From IMG/VR virus record IMGVR_UViG_2541047931_000010: a DNA stretch of 4,502 nucleotides; one strand, given 5' to 3'. Of this stretch, positions 1 through 4,502 are shown in pieces. Positions within the stretch are counted from its first letter, which is position 1, and the number at the start of each line of letters is the position of its first letter. A program made the translations under genes and the position numbers. This DNA is from a virus. Its lineage: Duplodnaviria; Heunggongvirae; Uroviricota; Caudoviricetes. The notes under the pieces were generated by a model. It did no database searches. It worked only from the letters and a program-made list of their open reading frames with translations, and was not told the DNA's origin.

Positions 1-558
1 ATGAATACAGCTATAACTTTTTCTAACGAGTCACCAAAAGTCTTTTTCAAAGATGGTCGCCTGGTTACCACCTCTCAAGCTGTTGCCGACTACTTCGATA
101 AACAACATAAACACGTTTTAGCTAAGATTGACACACTCGACTGCTCTCCCGAATTTACATCAGCCAACTTTTCGGCCGATGTTCAGACTGTCGAAATTGG
201 CAACGGCGCAGAACGTGAATCACGATGCTACCTGATCACAAAAGACGGCTTCATGTTCCTCGTAATGGGATTTACTGGCAAAAAAGCAGCCAGACTAAAA
301 GAAGCTTACATTGAAAAATTTAACGCAATGGAAGAAGAACTCCACAAACGTCCTCCTGCAGCACAAAACTCCCCCGACCCAAATAATGGATGCGCATTAC
401 TGATCCACTTCGATAAACACGGTCAGGTCGAGTTCACAGAAAAAGTCCCCGCCGATGCGATGGTATGCACGCTGGAACGGTTTAAATTTTATCTGGAGCA
501 ACATGGGTGGATCGTTGCCCGTAAAGAACAATTGGTGGAAAGGTTGATGCGGTTTTAA
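1..558 (+). CDS. Rha-family phage regulatory protein (antirepressor-like)
   Basis: 185-aa ORF starting at the ATG at position 1 and ending at TAA 556-558. The N-terminal segment GRLVTTSQAVADYFDKQHKHVLAKID fits the Rha-domain signature as I remember it (v.TsSr.iAe.fgKrH.nVLr.I). A GC hairpin plus T-run follows directly. The ORF may continue upstream of the window. Confidence 0.75.
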   Translation: MNTAITFSNESPKVFFKDGRLVTTSQAVADYFDKQHKHVLAKIDTLDCSPEFTSANFSADVQTVEIGNGAERESRCYLITKDGFMFLVMGFTGKKAARLKEAYIEKFNAMEEELHKRPPAAQNSPDPNNGCALLIHFDKHGQVEFTEKVPADAMVCTLERFKFYLEQHGWIVARKEQLVERLMRF

Positions 559-565
559 TGAATGC

Positions 566-598
566 AAAACCCCGGATGATCACCGGGGTTAATTTTAT
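566..598. terminator. Probable bidirectional rho-independent terminator between convergent genes
   Basis: 8-bp GC-rich stem aaccccgg (568-575) / ccggggtt (583-590) with 7-nt loop atgatca. It is followed by aattttat on the plus strand and preceded by gcaaaa, which gives a U-run on the minus strand. It starts 8 nt after the Rha stop. Confidence 0.55.
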
Positions 599-684: not shown

Positions 685-855
685 TCAATAAATCCCATCA
701 TTGCGATCAACCTCATCCTTAACCATTGATGCGAGCAGTTCTTCCAGTTTCTGCGCTGACAGCTTTACCTGGTGATCTTCAGCATCTTCCCGGGCTATTG
801 TGGTTCGCGCAGTGGCTGATTTTGCTGACATCACCTCAGGGGGCAGACGGACCAT
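685..855 (-). CDS. Small hypothetical protein (about 56 aa), doubtful
   Basis: Taken from the 685..966 minus-strand ORF in the track, using the internal ATG at 853-855 (MVRLPPEVMSAKSAT...NDGIY). GGAGG lies 10 nt upstream. The longer form starts at a TTG inside the hairpin and tfa stop region and is not credible. No recognisable motif, so this may be a spurious ORF. Confidence 0.3.
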   Translation of the reverse strand: MVRLPPEVMSAKSATARTTIAREDAEDHQVKLSAQKLEELLASMVKDEVDRNDGIY

Positions 856-919
856 TGAACCATGGCCTCCGGAACAAATAAGGGCAAAAATAACAACCAC
901 TATCGAAAGCTCACAAACT

Positions 920-1089
920 AACCGCAGCACGTTCCTGCATACGACGTGTCTGCGGCATAATCCCAATGATTACTCCCTGACAGGATTTGCAGGCCACTCA
1001 ATATCAGGTGCAGTTGATGTATCAACACGATTCAACAATACCCGATATTTATTCCATGCCTCCAGCAACGATCTTTCTTCCTCCGTTGC
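920..1089. repeat. Direct repeat copy 1 (hairpin plus 3' end of tfa)
   Basis: About 170 bp matching 1970..2138 in the same orientation, roughly 85-90% identical by eye, with one 1-nt indel in the hairpin arm. On the minus strand it encodes the conserved Tfa C-terminus. Confidence 0.85.
922..955 (-). terminator. Hairpin directly downstream of tfa fragment copy 1 (terminator-like)
   Basis: Arms ccgcagcacg (922-931) and cgtgtctgcgg (945-955) pair with a 1-nt bulge. It lies 14 nt beyond the tfa stop on the minus strand and is followed on that strand by a U-rich stretch (uuaguuugug). No clean U-tract, so terminator function is uncertain. Confidence 0.35.
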
Positions 1090-1203
1090 GATTTCCAGAT
1101 CTACAGCATCCTGCAGTGGCGCAATATACTCACTGAATTCCTGGATGTAGAACTGTGTGGTGACGGTCTTCCAGCCATTCGGCTCCTGCTGTATCGAAGC
1201 ATA
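970..1203 (-). pseudogene. Tail-fibre assembly protein (Tfa) 3' fragment, C-terminal ~77 codons, no start codon
   Basis: Minus-strand translation gives [77 protein letters not shown]. This matches the conserved lambda/Mu-type Tfa C-terminus (...[43 protein letters not shown]...) as I recall it. The frame is closed upstream by TAG (1204-1206) and contains no ATG or GTG. Confidence 0.7.
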
Positions 1204-1295: not shown

Positions 1296-1964
1296 ATGGT
1301 GAAATCAATGAAAAAAAACACAGATGATGGGGCTAAAATTTACACACCACTTACCCTAAAGCTTTATGACTGGTGGGTTTTGGGAGTATCAAATCGGCTT
1401 GCATGGGGATGTCCTACAAAGGAACACCTTCTTCCACACTTTCTGGAACATTTAGGTAACAACCATCTGGATATTGGTGTTGGAACTGGGTTTTACCTTA
1501 CTCACGTACCTGAGAGTAGTCTGATATCTTTAATGGATTTGAACGAAGCTAGCCTGAACGCGGCATCTACAAGGGCTGGGGAATCAAAAATTAAACATAA
1601 AATTAGCCATGATGTTTTTGAACCTTATCCCGCGGCGTTACATGGTCAATTTGATTCCATTTCCATGTTTTACCTTCTTCACTGCCTGCCTGGAAATATA
1701 TCTACAAAAAGCTGTGTAATACGCAATGCGGCGCAGGCCTTAACTGACGATGGAACTCTATACGGAGCCACAATTCTTGGCGATGGAGTTGTGCACAATA
1801 GCTTCGGTCAAAAACTGATGCGCATTTACAATCAGAAAGGCATCTTTTCAAACACAAAAGATTCCGAAGAAGGCTTAACACATATACTCTCAGAGCATTT
1901 CGAGAATGTTAAAACCAAGGTTCAAGGTACTGTAGTAATGTTTTCCGCTTCAGGGAAAAAATAG
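1296..1964 (+). CDS. ybcY: Class I SAM-dependent methyltransferase (Rossmann fold, not a DNA methyltransferase), probable prophage cargo gene
   Basis: 222-aa ORF. Motif I LDIGVGTG, acidic post-I residue (LMDLNE), motif II FDSISMFYLLHCL and motif III LTDDGTLYG. No DPPY/NPPY or PCQ/ENV motifs. GC is clearly lower than the flanks (about 36% in the first 66 nt). The start may instead be the ATG at 1308, which has GGTGA 5 nt upstream. The gene symbol is tentative: it rests only on remembered synteny with DLP12 tfaD-ybcY-tfaX, not on sequence comparison. Confidence 0.72.
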   Translation: MVKSMKKNTDDGAKIYTPLTLKLYDWWVLGVSNRLAWGCPTKEHLLPHFLEHLGNNHLDIGVGTGFYLTHVPESSLISLMDLNEASLNAASTRAGESKIKHKISHDVFEPYPAALHGQFDSISMFYLLHCLPGNISTKSCVIRNAAQALTDDGTLYGATILGDGVVHNSFGQKLMRIYNQKGIFSNTKDSEEGLTHILSEHFENVKTKVQGTVVMFSASGKK

Positions 1965-1969
1965 CATCC

Positions 1970-2138
1970 AACCGCAGCACGTTCTTGCTTAAGACGTGCT
2001 GCGGCATAATCCCAATGATTACTCCCTGACAGGGTTCGTAGGCCACTCAATATCAGGTGCAGTTGATGTATCAACACGGTTCAGCAACACCCGATACTTC
2101 TTCCAGGCTTCCAGCAACGGAGTTTCTTCCTCCGTTGC
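1970..2138. repeat. Direct repeat copy 2 (hairpin plus 3' end of tfa)
   Basis: Matches 920..1089 in the same orientation. Similarity fades by about 2147, where the membrane-protein gene ends. Confidence 0.85.
1972..2004 (-). terminator. Hairpin directly downstream of tfa fragment copy 2 (terminator-like)
   Basis: Perfect 11-bp stem ccgcagcacgt (1972-1982) / acgtgctgcgg (1994-2004) with an 11-nt loop. It lies 14 nt beyond the tfa stop on the minus strand, and a U6 run follows about 10 nt later on that strand. On the plus strand it starts 8 nt after the methyltransferase stop but has no U-tract. Confidence 0.4.
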
Positions 2139-2157: not shown

Positions 2158-2451
2158 TCACCCACGATTAACCAACAGCCAGACCAGCAGACACGCCACC
2201 ACCGGCACAGCAAAATCCATCAGGCTTGCCACATCCCACGCGCGCGGATCAAAACCGCCCCACCACGGCATATTCATTCGCTTGCCATGCACGAACATTT
2301 CAATCCAGCGATATTCTGCCTGGGTGTGTTCACGCGCAATGAAGAACGTACAACCGGCTATCGCCCCGTAAGCCCAGTTTCCGGTAAAAAGACCAGCCAG
2401 TACCTGCACCGCCACGGCACAAAGCGCATGAAGTATCGACGTGATATCCAT
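2158..2451 (-). CDS. Small hypothetical membrane protein (97 aa, 2-3 predicted transmembrane segments)
   Basis: ATG at 2449-2451 with AAGGA about 6 nt upstream and only 9 nt after the stop of the preceding gene. Hydrophobic stretches at residues 5-38 and 74-94. Ends at TGA 2158-2160. No family recognised. Confidence 0.6.
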   Translation of the reverse strand: MDITSILHALCAVAVQVLAGLFTGNWAYGAIAGCTFFIAREHTQAEYRWIEMFVHGKRMNMPWWGGFDPRAWDVASLMDFAVPVVACLLVWLLVNRG

Positions 2452-2460
2452 CTGCTATCC

Positions 2461-2739
2461 TTAAAACCACTCCCTGAGCGGGCGCTCTGGTGTAACCACC
2501 CACTCACGGAACACGGAATCATCAAATCCATCGTCAAGAAGACGGATATTAACAAAGTACCCTTCGTTTCGCGTGTATTCTGGTTCTCCGTCATCAGAAA
2601 CATCTGTCTCCCTGAACGTAAAACCAATCTCATCAACCAGAACGGCATTCTGCAGCTCTTCGTCCTCTTCCCAGTTAAGTTTCCTGAGAAATGCCCTGAA
2701 ATCTGCTTTATCACTGAAACGCAACGTGAAATCTCTCAC
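2461..2739 (-). CDS. Small acidic hypothetical protein (92 aa), translationally coupled to the tail-fibre gene
   Basis: GTG start at 2737-2739 overlaps the tail-fibre TGA stop in a GTGA arrangement. A strong GGAGG sits 7 nt upstream. There are 24 Asp+Glu against 12 Arg+Lys and no internal Met. No family recognised. Confidence 0.62.
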   Translation of the reverse strand: MRDFTLRFSDKADFRAFLRKLNWEEDEELQNAVLVDEIGFTFRETDVSDDGEPEYTRNEGYFVNIRLLDDGFDDSVFREWVVTPERPLREWF

Positions 2740-4502
2740 TCCACAACCTCCCCAAGCTGCGCATCTGTTAGCTCTTTATGCCAGAGACGAAAATTCCTCA
2801 CATGCCCAAATAAATGGCGTAATCCTGCTGTAGTTTGTCCACCAATGCGAATGATTGCTGTACTCCGGATATATTCCCATGTGGTTTTTGTTTCGCTGGA
2901 TATACGCCCGTTACTTACTGCACATGTAGACTGATCTGACTTTACACGCATCCCCATAACCATTTTTTTCAACGATGCGTTTTCGTTAACACGCCTATTT
3001 GATCCACCAATATCGCAATAAGGAAATCCGTCTGGCCCATCTGCCGAAGATCCGAAGCCAAGAATAATAGCCGCTCCGGTTTGATGACCGCCGGTATCAA
3101 AAACACGTGGCGCTGCATTTGGCGTTTTATACCAGTTCTTATGTACCTCACAAAGAACCGTAAAAGGAAGATTATAAAGATTATTCTTAATCGGAACTGT
3201 AACCATATCGCTTGCGCGCGTCGCCGCCGTCGTTCCTGATATAATAAAAGATGATACACACGAACCATCCTCAACCTGAGGGGTGGCCAGATAAATATAG
3301 TCACCAGATTCAACGACACCACCTTTTTTTGGTGCGTATTGTATTGCAGAGGTTATGTAAGTTTCTTTACTTGCTTGAATCGTTGCCTCTACAAAAATCC
3401 AGCCCGTAGCTTCATCTTTGCTAACTCGTGCGGTGAGCCTGTCGGCAGCTACACCGGTGATTTCAACCAATAAAGACCGCGTATTAACAATGGCATATCC
3501 AAGATTAGATGAAGCGCTGCCATCGAAGGCTTCAAACCTGATCCTTAACAGGAGTTCCAAATCCGTTTTAAATCTGCACGATGTCGTCACACACTTATTA
3601 TCGCCTGATACATCGACAGCCCCCGAGGTTGAAACTACTGCCATATTAAGGGTTGTACTTTGCCCAATTAATGATTCATTACAAACAAACTTTCCATAAG
3701 TAAAACCAAAACTATCAGTTCCAACCTCAGCGACATTCATATTTGCAGATTTACCCCAAGAAGCTGGAGTTGCTGAATTCAACATGTAGTTGGTTCGCTG
3801 ACCTTCAATCAATAAACCTTCTTTTTCAAATCGTGGCTCATTAATTTCCGCCGTTTTCAGTTCGCCAGATTTGTTGATATATGTTGCCGTTGATGCGCGA
3901 CTGAAATTAACCTGTTTATCACTGGCAACCTGAACCACATTATCACCAATCATCACTTTTTTATAACCCGGAGAATAGCCCGTAATCATATCCAGCGAAT
4001 CATTAAAGGGTATCCACACATCCGGCAGCGGCTGTAAAACATATCTGTACGGCTCTGCTGTCTGGTTTGCGTATTCTCTGGCAGCATCTTCACTTGCTTT
4101 TGCTGCCGTCTGGCTTGCTGCCGATGCTTTCGCCGAGTTCGCCGCCGCTGTTTCGCTCACCTTTGCGTTGGCTTCACTGTCTTTGGCATTCGTCTCACTG
4201 GTTTTCGCTGCCGTCTGGCTGGATTTTGCGTTTTTTTCGCTGGCCTTTGTGGCTGTCTCGCTATTTTTCGCGCTGGTTTCTGATTTTTTGGCTGCTGTCG
4301 CGGAGTTTGCCGATGCAGTCTGCGAGGCCGCTGCCGCCTGTGCGCTGTTAGCTGCATTCGTTTCTGAGGTTTTCGCCGCATTCTTCGATGAGGCTGCTGC
4401 CGTTTCGGATTTCTTTGCCGCCGCTGCACTCTGTGATGACGCTCCGGCATGACGTGCCACTTCATTCACCATCAGCTCAAAACGGCGCAGTGCCTCCGGA
4501 CG
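2736..4502 (-). CDS. Phage side tail fibre protein (Stf-like), N-terminus lies beyond the window
   Basis: The frame is open to the window edge; 2736..4502 translates to 588 aa. The first residues RPEALRRFELMVNEVARHA resemble the lambdoid Stf anchor region (PEVLRRLELMVEEVAR, from memory). Ala/Ser/Thr-rich SETNA/KNA-type fibre repeats follow. The C-terminal part ends with ...RHLFGHVRNFRLWHKELTDAQL, which resembles the terminal motif of LamG/ConA-like lectin domains. Confidence 0.9.
   Translation of the reverse strand, partial: RPEALRRFELMVNEVARHAGASSQSAAAAKKSETAAASSKNAAKTSETNAANSAQAAAASQTASANSATAAKKSETSAKNSETATKASEKNAKSSQTAAKTSETNAKDSEANAKVSETAAANSAKASAASQTAAKASEDAAREYANQTAEPYRYVLQPLPDVWIPFNDSLDMITGYSPGYKKVMIGDNVVQVASDKQVNFSRASTATYINKSGELKTAEINEPRFEKEGLLIEGQRTNYMLNSATPASWGKSANMNVAEVGTDSFGFTYGKFVCNESLIGQSTTLNMAVVSTSGAVDVSGDNKCVTTSCRFKTDLELLLRIRFEAFDGSASSNLGYAIVNTRSLLVEITGVAADRLTARVSKDEATGWIFVEATIQASKETYITSAIQYAPKKGGVVESGDYIYLATPQVEDGSCVSSFIISGTTAATRASDMVTVPIKNNLYNLPFTVLCEVHKNWYKTPNAAPRVFDTGGHQTGAAIILGFGSSADGPDGFPYCDIGGSNRRVNENASLKKMVMGMRVKSDQSTCAVSNGRISSETKTTWEYIRSTAIIRIGGQTTAGLRHLFGHVRNFRLWHKELTDAQLGEVVE
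4098..4439 (-). repeat. Imperfect tandem repeats encoding the tail-fibre repeat region
   Basis: Repeated nucleotide units such as ttttgctgccgtctggcttgctgcc and ttttcgctgccgtctggctgg encode repeated A-K-x-S-E-T-N-A-type peptides. Every frame on both strands is open here, which explains the spurious ORFs in the track. Confidence 0.6.

Follow-up and report, generated by a model that had tools for sequence, protein, structure and literature searches.

The range of strains open to lambdoid phages, and to delivery particles derived from lambda, is set by their side tail fibers. In phage lambda, the side fiber gene is directly followed by, and coupled to, the gene for a small acidic protein, Tfa (family Caudo_TAP, PF02413), and Tfa serves fibers with a lambda/T4 gp37-type tip. 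Accessory genes beside receptor-binding genes are also known from phages phi80 and N15 (Cor) and T5 (Llp), whose products are FhuA-specific lipoproteins of the outer membrane, with a specificity linked to that of the neighboring receptor-binding protein. HK97 gp15, T4 Imm, and P22 SieA are small or polytopic inner-membrane proteins that act generically on DNA entry, with gp15 encoded among tail genes. Here, we analyze IMG/VR record IMGVR_UViG_2541047931_000010, a 4,502-nucleotide (nt) stretch of an Escherichia coli lambdoid prophage (referred to in full length as the window), in which the slot behind the side tail fiber gene holds the genes for an acidic protein of 92 amino acids (aa) and a membrane protein of 97 aa. 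All three genes lie on the minus strand.

The closest described relatives of the two small proteins are gp23 and gp24 of phage 21 (OL657228), which are direct homologues (64% and 93% identical to the 92-aa and 97-aa proteins, respectively) whose genes are likewise ordered behind a side tail fiber gene of this kind. They are annotated as “hypothetical protein” and “putative membrane protein” and add no mechanism. Both proteins are thus already in databases as hypothetical entries, the corresponding protein families PHROG 1361 (acidic) and PHROG 1443 (membrane) are both labeled “unknown function”, and our literature searches found no paper dealing with either protein. The locus is common and its architecture will not surprise a phage biologist, while the membrane protein family is large, sharply defined, and easily tested. 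About one-third of complete E. coli genomes encode it, often more than once, and it is unnamed and domain-less. With its invariant motif and its travel alongside receptor-binding genes, it offers a plating or adsorption screen a target that is cheap and well defined.

As the best explanation of the locus, we propose a fiber accessory protein followed by a generic inner-membrane or envelope protein. We hold this explanation as a whole with slightly less than even confidence. The data show directly that the genes are real and conserved, how they are ordered, that they lack homology to known families, and how the membrane protein folds; from this we infer both of the biochemical roles.

Two conserved genes stand in the slot of tfa

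Direct reading of the sequence bore out the layout described in the initial annotation, including the GTGA overlap (fiber stop TGA at 2736 to 2738, GTG start of the 92-aa gene at 2737 to 2739), the GGAGG and AAGGA ribosome-binding sites, and the 9-nt gap between the TAA stop of the 92-aa gene (2461 to 2463) and the ATG of the 97-aa gene (2449 to 2451) (Table 1). The GTG start is backed by homologues, which open with M[KR]D[LF]TL[KR]F. Ratios of nonsynonymous to synonymous substitution rates (dN/dS) against relatives lie between 0.12 and 0.29 for both small genes (0.25 for the acidic gene against that of ev243), and the PHROG profiles match at full length (E=1.1e-40 over residues 1 to 92 of 92 for the acidic protein, E=1.2e-56 over residues 1 to 96 of 97 for the membrane protein). 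Of 5426 complete E. coli genomes, 1906 have DNA that matches the pair region, in the majority over the membrane-gene half only, and 365 cover both genes in the allele of the window. Because of the homologue-backed start, the low dN/dS, the full-length profile matches, and the wide occurrence, both small open reading frames (ORFs) are, as judged from sequence comparison, real genes under purifying selection and not chance ORFs. Inside the three-gene block, a simple-consensus scan of the minus strand, which weak promoters could escape, found no sigma-70-like promoter and no terminator; the three genes therefore look co-transcribed with the late tail operon.

The fiber matches the tail protein family phrog_1419 (E=3e-288), with PF08400 at its N-terminal edge. 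Its shaft is repetitive and rich in Ala, Ser, Thr, and Lys, and a head domain makes up the distal part; the complete gene in E. coli S88 encodes 686 aa. The head matches NCBIfam GTA_spike_fiber (NF048003; E=3e-13) and Rcc01080, the head-spike fiber of the gene transfer agent (GTA) RcGTA (PDB 6tb9; E=3.2e-6). By these matches the distal head is homologous to the RcGTA head-spike fiber, which binds capsular polysaccharide, and we describe the window fiber as a putatively lectin-headed side tail fiber. The RcGTA protein is mounted on the capsid, whereas the homologous domain in the window sits on a lambdoid side-fiber shaft.

The window contains no intact tfa: a tblastn search with lambda Tfa returned two stubs only, both of which are annotated as pseudogenes by RefSeq in the near-identical loci of E. 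coli S88 and BEC1. As the initial annotation had pointed out, a start-less stub follows the two small genes and a functional tfa is missing; this stub is 39 codons long. The 92-aa protein occupies the same slot as lambda Tfa but has no sequence relation to it and is less than half its length (92 versus 194 aa). BLASTP of the acidic protein against lambda Tfa found nothing at E<=100, and Caudo_TAP was absent at E<=1 from Pfam scans of the acidic protein and 19 family members, so the possibility of a Tfa with a divergent N terminus can be set aside. We read the stub behind the membrane gene as a scar of module exchange, in which the leftover 3' end of tfa suggests that a lambda-type tip and the 5' part of tfa were swapped for a different cassette. 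The window would accordingly hold the 3' end of a lambdoid host-range cassette that took the place of such a tip and tfa.

Table 1. Positions of genes, signals, and remnants in the window
Feature	Position	Strand	Evidence or remark
Side tail fiber gene (stf)	2736->4502	-	5' end beyond window edge
92-aa acidic protein gene	2461-2739	-	phrog_1361, E=1e-40
97-aa membrane protein gene	2158-2451	-	phrog_1443, E=1e-56; AlphaFold2 pLDDT 93.7
GGAGG ribosome-binding site, 92-aa gene	2747-2751	-	7 nt 5' of GTG start; sequence read
AAGGA ribosome-binding site, 97-aa gene	2458-2462	-	Overlaps TAA stop of 92-aa gene; sequence read
Start-less Tfa C-terminal stub	2022-2138	-	Lambda Tfa residues 156-194; tblastn 87% identity, E=6e-18
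Second Tfa stub	973-1161	-	Lambda Tfa residues 132-194; tblastn
Class I S-adenosylmethionine (SAM)-dependent methyltransferase	1296-1964	+	phrog_2132 (unknown function); Pfam Methyltransf_12/23/25
Perfect 11-bp inverted repeat CCGCAGCACGT(11 nt)ACGTGCTGCGG	1972-2004		Between methyltransferase stop and Tfa stub
93-aa ORF	685-966	-	Site of DUF4376-domain pseudogene (RefSeq) in BEC1, the closest genome
Rha-family phage regulatory protein	1-558	+	PF09669, E=3e-27
Intrinsic-terminator-like hairpin	568-590		After Rha-family gene

The acidic protein gene accompanies one fiber family over large distances

The 92-aa protein has an isoelectric point (pI) of 4.26, with 24 Asp and Glu residues against 12 Lys and Arg. 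A word-indexed search with it found about 25 clusters, in Escherichia only, and an exhaustive profile search yielded 55 representatives, which formed the basis of our family alignment (A3). The family comprises phrog_1361 and phrog_18574, both of “unknown function”; after spurious matches were removed, its members are proteins of 85 to 101 aa that share the motifs M(K/R)DLxL(K/R)F, D.IG, GY(F/H)VNxR, and PxRvW(A). Among the library matches, the eukaryotic long repeat proteins P0158, P0167, P0169, and P0188 were dropped, P0167 after inspection as a spurious repeat and the other three by length and repeat count only. Searches of Pfam, NCBIfam, PADLOC, and the PDB, both with the single sequence and with the profile, gave no significant match; the sole PDB match of the profile, Tetrahymena p19 (E=0.0037), was treated as chance. 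In IMG/VR, searches started from four single distant members found no loci, and a search with a further alignment (A6) found E. coli-type loci only. In two loci (L104, positions 5481 to 5996, and L114, positions 5429 to 5995), the homologues are 171 to 188 aa long, with the recognizable domain N-terminal and an extra C-terminal extension.

The evidence that bears most directly on the role of the acidic protein comes from gene order. A distant environmental subfamily, 31% identical to the window protein, is present in 217 IMG/VR stretches, and we read the synteny in the 80 of these loci that were retrieved. The start of the acidic gene sits on the fiber stop codon in 79 of the 80, the exception being cut by a contig end. 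The fiber heads of this lineage match the window head (phmmer E=1e-18 to 1e-43); in the locus L008, this is a phrog_1419/5939 fiber that has two segments in common with the window fiber, one at the shaft-head junction and the other a C-terminal strand, GHxRNxRxWHxxLTDxQ. Of a further 80 E. coli-type loci, 79 likewise have adjoining fiber and acidic genes, and the same order is found in phage 21, ev243, Lambda_2E9, 2G7b, E. coli S88 and BEC1, and Escherichia ruysiae. Weak but full-length homologues of the acidic protein lie beside phrog_5939 fibers in Comamonas (L102 and L114; C. kerstersii and C. thiooxydans), in a contig labeled Pantoea (L104), and in Chelativorans (L110). By gene order, then, the acidic gene appears to belong with this fiber family over very large distances and to be translationally coupled to it.

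Because this start-on-stop adjacency is conserved in distant lineages, the best reading of the acidic protein is that it is probably a fiber accessory or assembly factor. It would be a dedicated cytoplasmic accessory of side fibers with an RcGTA-like head (phrog_1419/5939), most likely aiding the folding, trimerization, or attachment of the distal fiber, as Tfa does for lambda-type fibers, and it may or may not stay on the virion.

Several observations sit uneasily with this role. Tfa-type chaperones usually track the fiber tip, whereas the acidic protein does not covary with the fiber head. Three types of acidic protein can be told apart across nine E. coli-type modules (A, as in the window; B, as in phage 21; and C, as in 2G7b), and pairwise identities over these modules gave a Spearman coefficient of 0.18 between head and acidic protein and of 0.13 between the last 60 fiber residues and the acidic protein. 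The heads of the window and 2G7b are 76% identical, and yet their acidic proteins are only 42% identical. The dedicated fiber helper suggested by the initial annotation thus finds a footing in the start-on-stop adjacency across distant lineages but none in covariation with the head. The protein differs from Tfa in this respect as well as in its partner, a fiber with a GTA head-spike-like head, and it may act on conserved parts of the fiber instead of its variable receptor-binding loops.

In addition, a second fiber gene lies directly 3' of the acidic gene in type C modules and in the environmental lineage, which makes a role as an adaptor or in branching just as possible on that evidence. The acidic protein could be a structural adaptor kept on the virion, for example a connector that hangs a short second fiber on the long side fiber to give branched fibers. 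The order of fiber, acidic gene, and second fiber (234 to 345 aa, with an SDxxLKxNI motif) recurs in both of these settings; wherever enough downstream sequence is available (66 loci), the second fiber follows the type C acidic gene, and acidic type follows the presence of a second fiber better than it follows fiber-head sequence. Types A and B, represented by the window and phage 21, nevertheless hold the acidic gene under purifying selection without any second fiber, so modules such as that of the window would have to retain the protein for another structural reason. We consider a virion-bound connector unlikely, and it would in any case be a variant of the accessory hypothesis and not a contradiction of it.

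If it is true that this fiber type needs the 92-aa protein as a partner, transplanted heads must bring that partner along.

The membrane protein forms a family with an invariant polar motif

The 97-aa protein is hydrophobic (grand average of hydropathy, +0.59), and AlphaFold2 models it as three long helices (residues 3 to 22, 25 to 52, and 73 to 95) with a predicted local distance difference test (pLDDT) score of 93.7. Fold searches with the model returned generic helical or helical-bundle matches only. A first sequence search found 564 clusters, from Escherichia, Salmonella, Leclercia, Enterobacter, Aeromonas, and Comamonas, and a profile built from diverse members extended these to 2109 clusters, all of which lack both a Pfam domain and an informative name. 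Neither the single sequence nor the profile had a significant match in Pfam, NCBIfam, PADLOC, or the PDB. The description of the two genes as uncharacterized in the initial annotation thus holds: neither protein belongs to a known family, and both genes are conserved in related prophages, again with no homologue of known function.

Conservation within the family is concentrated in a signature that reads R39-E40-x-T-Q-A-E-Y-R-W-I ... G55-x-R57 ... M-P-W-W-G-G ... W71 ... P82. Thirteen positions are invariant (R39, E40, Q43, A44, E45, Y46, R47, W48, G55, R57, P61, W71, and P82), an invariance that spans alpha-, beta-, gamma-, and deltaproteobacterial members together with one metagenome-assembled genome (MAG) labeled Dehalococcoidia. 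H7, Q15, the MPWWGG motif, D67, and D78 are near-invariant. A scan for the membrane gene with one genome per species gave 67 loci. The gene is carried by gammaproteobacteria (Escherichia, Leclercia, Silvania, Pantoea, Aeromonas, and Halomonas), betaproteobacteria (Comamonas, Acidovorax, and Pigmentiphaga), and alphaproteobacteria (many sphingomonads, Chelativorans, and Devosia), as well as by Desulfovibrio.

In prophages, the membrane gene tends to follow a receptor-binding gene, whatever the type of the latter. Of 10 tightly coupled loci tested, 8 have a large upstream gene for a tail fiber, spike, or J-like protein, and these receptor-binding genes span seven different PHROG families. Unrelated tail fibers or spikes precede it in alpha-, beta-, gamma-, and deltaproteobacterial prophages; in Leclercia (L006), for example, the preceding gene is a P2-type fiber with an S74 domain. 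In other prophages a small acidic protein of another family often lies between the fiber and membrane genes. In L116 (Comamonas nitrativorans) and L117 (Pigmentiphaga humi), at positions 4782 to 6688, the membrane gene sits between the gene for a 370- to 383-aa protein, Mtd-like in L116, and a bAvd-like gene (PF22296, E=2e-32), a setting that looks like the target module (mtd-avd) of a diversity-generating retroelement (DGR).

The gene also has standalone copies in the chromosomes of Aeromonas, Leclercia, Silvania, and sphingomonads, where housekeeping genes surround it. Their neighbors are unrelated (ligA, pnp, and porin, PFOR, and ABC transporter genes), and we found no conserved functional association among them. 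Several Aeromonas species have the gene at one chromosomal site (L005, L091, L095, L096, and L098). In L005, it follows a pirin gene and precedes genes for a RIO1 kinase and a lipid A acyltransferase, as identified by Pfam; the other four loci show a similar pattern of ORF sizes, with their neighbors placed by size only. This single conserved position suggests that in Aeromonas the gene is inherited vertically as an ordinary cellular gene.

A generic role in the cell envelope is the favored reading

Together, these properties describe what would be a self-sufficient three-helix inner-membrane protein that phages repeatedly carry as the last gene of receptor-binding cassettes. Because its sequence is indifferent to the neighboring fiber type and its polar motif is invariant, the most likely target of the 97-aa protein is a conserved envelope or inner-membrane component. 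As to which component, we can only infer candidates for its action: it might impose a generic block on incoming phage DNA or change envelope biogenesis. In the former case it would be like HK97 gp15, T4 Imm, and P22 SieA in kind only, as it has no sequence or specific fold similarity to them, and its family is far more conserved and also occurs in chromosomes.

A number of points weigh against this role. Strong cross-class conservation is unusual for superinfection-exclusion proteins. Counts of Lys and Arg (5.2 versus 1.3) put the conserved loop in the cytoplasm, and the basic C-terminal tails of the sphingomonad homologues point to the opposite membrane topology. A simple-consensus scan found, unlike what is expected of a classical moron, no sigma-70-like promoter upstream of position 2451 on the minus strand and no terminator-like site directly after position 2158. 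Finally, the membrane gene borders a lysis cassette in three prophage groups (L115, L109, and L004/L107), which we take up below.

A bolder version of our explanation is that each small protein founds a new family. The 97-aa protein would then define an unnamed family of inner-membrane effectors (RExTQAEYRWI...MPWWGG) with a bacterial envelope function, which serves as a generic add-on to phage receptor-binding cassettes in at least four proteobacterial classes and acts as a new kind of injection block or as a micro-enzyme that modifies the envelope; the 92-aa protein would define a non-Tfa family of assembly or adaptor proteins for GTA-like lectin-headed fibers, which could be put to use in engineering the host range of lambdoid phages. 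We regard this as a possibility, if a doubtful one.

Another way to account for the membrane protein is as a small enzyme or inhibitor that acts on the synthesis of lipid-linked surface polysaccharide and, in the manner of seroconversion, alters the glycan bound by lectin-type fibers, which would protect lysogens or keep progeny from sticking to debris. The neighboring head is homologous to the polysaccharide-binding RcGTA fiber, invariant His, Gln, Arg, Glu, Tyr, and Asp residues in or next to the membrane helices look like a catalytic or ligand site, and the chromosomal copies would fit a cell-autonomous envelope function. There is also a precedent, since small inner-membrane modifiers of O-antigen synthesis are known beside the tailspike genes of phages epsilon15 and D3. 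However, the protein has no homology to any glycan-modifying family and its structure searches gave generic matches only, its gene also follows J-like tips of the protein-receptor type, and the chromosomal copies have no conserved association with polysaccharide genes. A polysaccharide modifier thus seems improbable.

The lysis-cassette neighborhoods mentioned above raise the possibility of a holin-like or lysis-timing protein of the class I holin/antiholin type, expressed late with the tail genes. The 97-aa protein resembles class I holins such as lambda S105 in its size, its three helices, the basic C-terminal tail that is present in many homologues (though only in some lineages), and its adjacency to an endolysin gene in a few prophages. 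The membrane gene is directly upstream of a GH108 endolysin gene preceded by a gene for a protein with multiple transmembrane segments in L115, directly upstream of a Phage_lysozyme gene whose product has an N-terminal transmembrane segment in L109, and upstream of genes for two membrane proteins and a soluble 183-aa protein in Comamonas (L004/L107). We take this 183-aa protein, which no tool matched, to resemble a lytic transglycosylase from our own reading of its motifs. The 2G7b allele starts with MKMD, resembling a dual-start motif, and one family member has a weak, nonsignificant match to Phage_holin_8 (E=0.042). Class I holins have an N-out/C-in topology with a charged C terminus; for the 97-aa protein the signals diverge, as its Lys and Arg counts favor the opposite orientation and the basic tails of sphingomonad homologues point the other way. 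Lysis-cassette placement, however, was not seen in the window, phage 21, other lambdoids, or P2-like or DGR contexts; in the lambdoid, P2-like, and DGR (L116) settings the gene stays with the fiber and not with lysis genes. In lambdoid phages such as phage 21 and lambda, the S/R/Rz cassette lies elsewhere and suffices for lysis. It is also atypical of holins to have a 34-residue invariant polar segment and to keep more than 45% identity from one proteobacterial class to another, and standalone copies occupy one conserved site in several Aeromonas species. We therefore think a lysis function quite unlikely.

The initial annotation had compared the membrane protein with the receptor-masking proteins Cor and Llp and had suggested that the acidic protein is a DNA mimic or an immunity partner; beyond the place beside a receptor-binding gene and the pI of 4.26 nothing speaks for this pair of roles, which is highly improbable, given that the membrane protein is polytopic and helical, lacks a lipobox (its N terminus, MDITSILHALC, has an acidic n-region and Leu at residue -1, and Cys11 varies among homologues), and stays near constant in sequence while the adjacent receptor-binding protein changes family, that the acidic gene is coupled to a late structural gene and not to early anti-defense genes and has no PADLOC match, and that the two genes occur independently of each other. 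As an integral three-helix protein that does not track the neighboring receptor-binding protein, the 97-aa protein is unlikely to mask any one specific receptor, in contrast to the FhuA-specific Cor and Llp.

The two small genes are separable parts of an exchangeable cassette

The trio of fiber, acidic, and membrane genes is present in phage 21 (gp22 to gp24), ev243, Lambda_2E9, E. coli S88, and E. ruysiae. In a second arrangement, found in 2G7b, BEC1, L088, and L090, a short second fiber gene (encoding 234 or 345 aa, with an S74-like SDxxLKxNI motif) lies between the acidic and membrane genes. A 2.8-kb contig of a MAG labeled Collinsella sp. (Actinobacteria; L089) carries E. coli-type fiber, acidic, second fiber, and membrane genes at about 91% identity and is almost certainly a binning contaminant.

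The distant IMG/VR lineage has the fiber and acidic genes with no membrane gene (80 loci), and most loci with the membrane gene have no acidic gene. Because each gene occurs without the other, the two are not an obligate pair and, by their distribution, are probably functionally separate. Against a complete separation stands the co-occurrence of all three genes in alpha-, beta-, and gammaproteobacterial prophages, and the three-gene cassette therefore evidently travels as a unit at times; a looser functional link of the membrane gene to the fiber is possible. The expectation that the pair co-occurs beside this type of fiber head is thus borne out by the trio in three proteobacterial classes, but not as a rule, since each gene also occurs alone. 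In Chelativorans sp. (L110, positions 4526 to 6590), the order is fiber (phrog_5939), membrane, acidic, with each start overlapping the previous stop.

Comparison of the E. coli modules revealed different degrees of divergence within the cassette. The membrane protein remains 88 to 100% identical, while the acidic protein and the fiber head each drop to 42%; as judged from these identities, the membrane gene therefore also serves as a conserved flank of a variable host-range segment. The locus illustrates cassette swapping, in which the conserved fiber N terminus and the membrane gene bracket a variable segment of head, accessory, and second fiber genes, with the Tfa stub left behind.

Remnants and cargo genes lie downstream of the membrane gene

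On the 3' side of the membrane gene, the Tfa stub comes first and a hairpin next. They are followed by the gene for a class I SAM-dependent methyltransferase, which is read from the opposite strand, and by a second copy of the stub (Table 1). A direct repeat (positions 920 to 1089 and 1970 to 2138, 90 to 91% identity) consists of the tfa 3' end and the downstream hairpin and brackets the methyltransferase gene, which looks as if it was inserted or duplicated as a cassette by recombination between tfa 3' ends. The same stub-methyltransferase-stub structure is found in S88, BEC1, ev243, and 2G7b. The methyltransferase gene has a promoter-like site at 1240 to 1267 and a weak PADLOC match to mad2 (E=0.003), and it is likely a moron. 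The inverted repeat between this gene and the Tfa stub has an imperfect copy at 922 to 954. It may act as a bidirectional terminator; the terminator scan did not call it, as no T-run directly follows.

In phage 21 (L002) and Lambda_2E9 (L155), an opposite-strand sitABCD metal-uptake operon adjoins the membrane gene, and the Tfa-stub region retains about 57 nt in common with the window. Different cargo at the same position marks the junction after the membrane gene as a putative hotspot for cargo insertion.

Farther downstream, the region around the 93-aa ORF (approximately 600 to 970) is a further remnant of a tail-fiber-assembly-type gene. The corresponding DUF4376 pseudogene of BEC1 has an internal stop and lacks its N terminus. 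In BEC1, an ash-family gene precedes the Rha-family gene, which is located at the end of the prophage near ompW/yciE.

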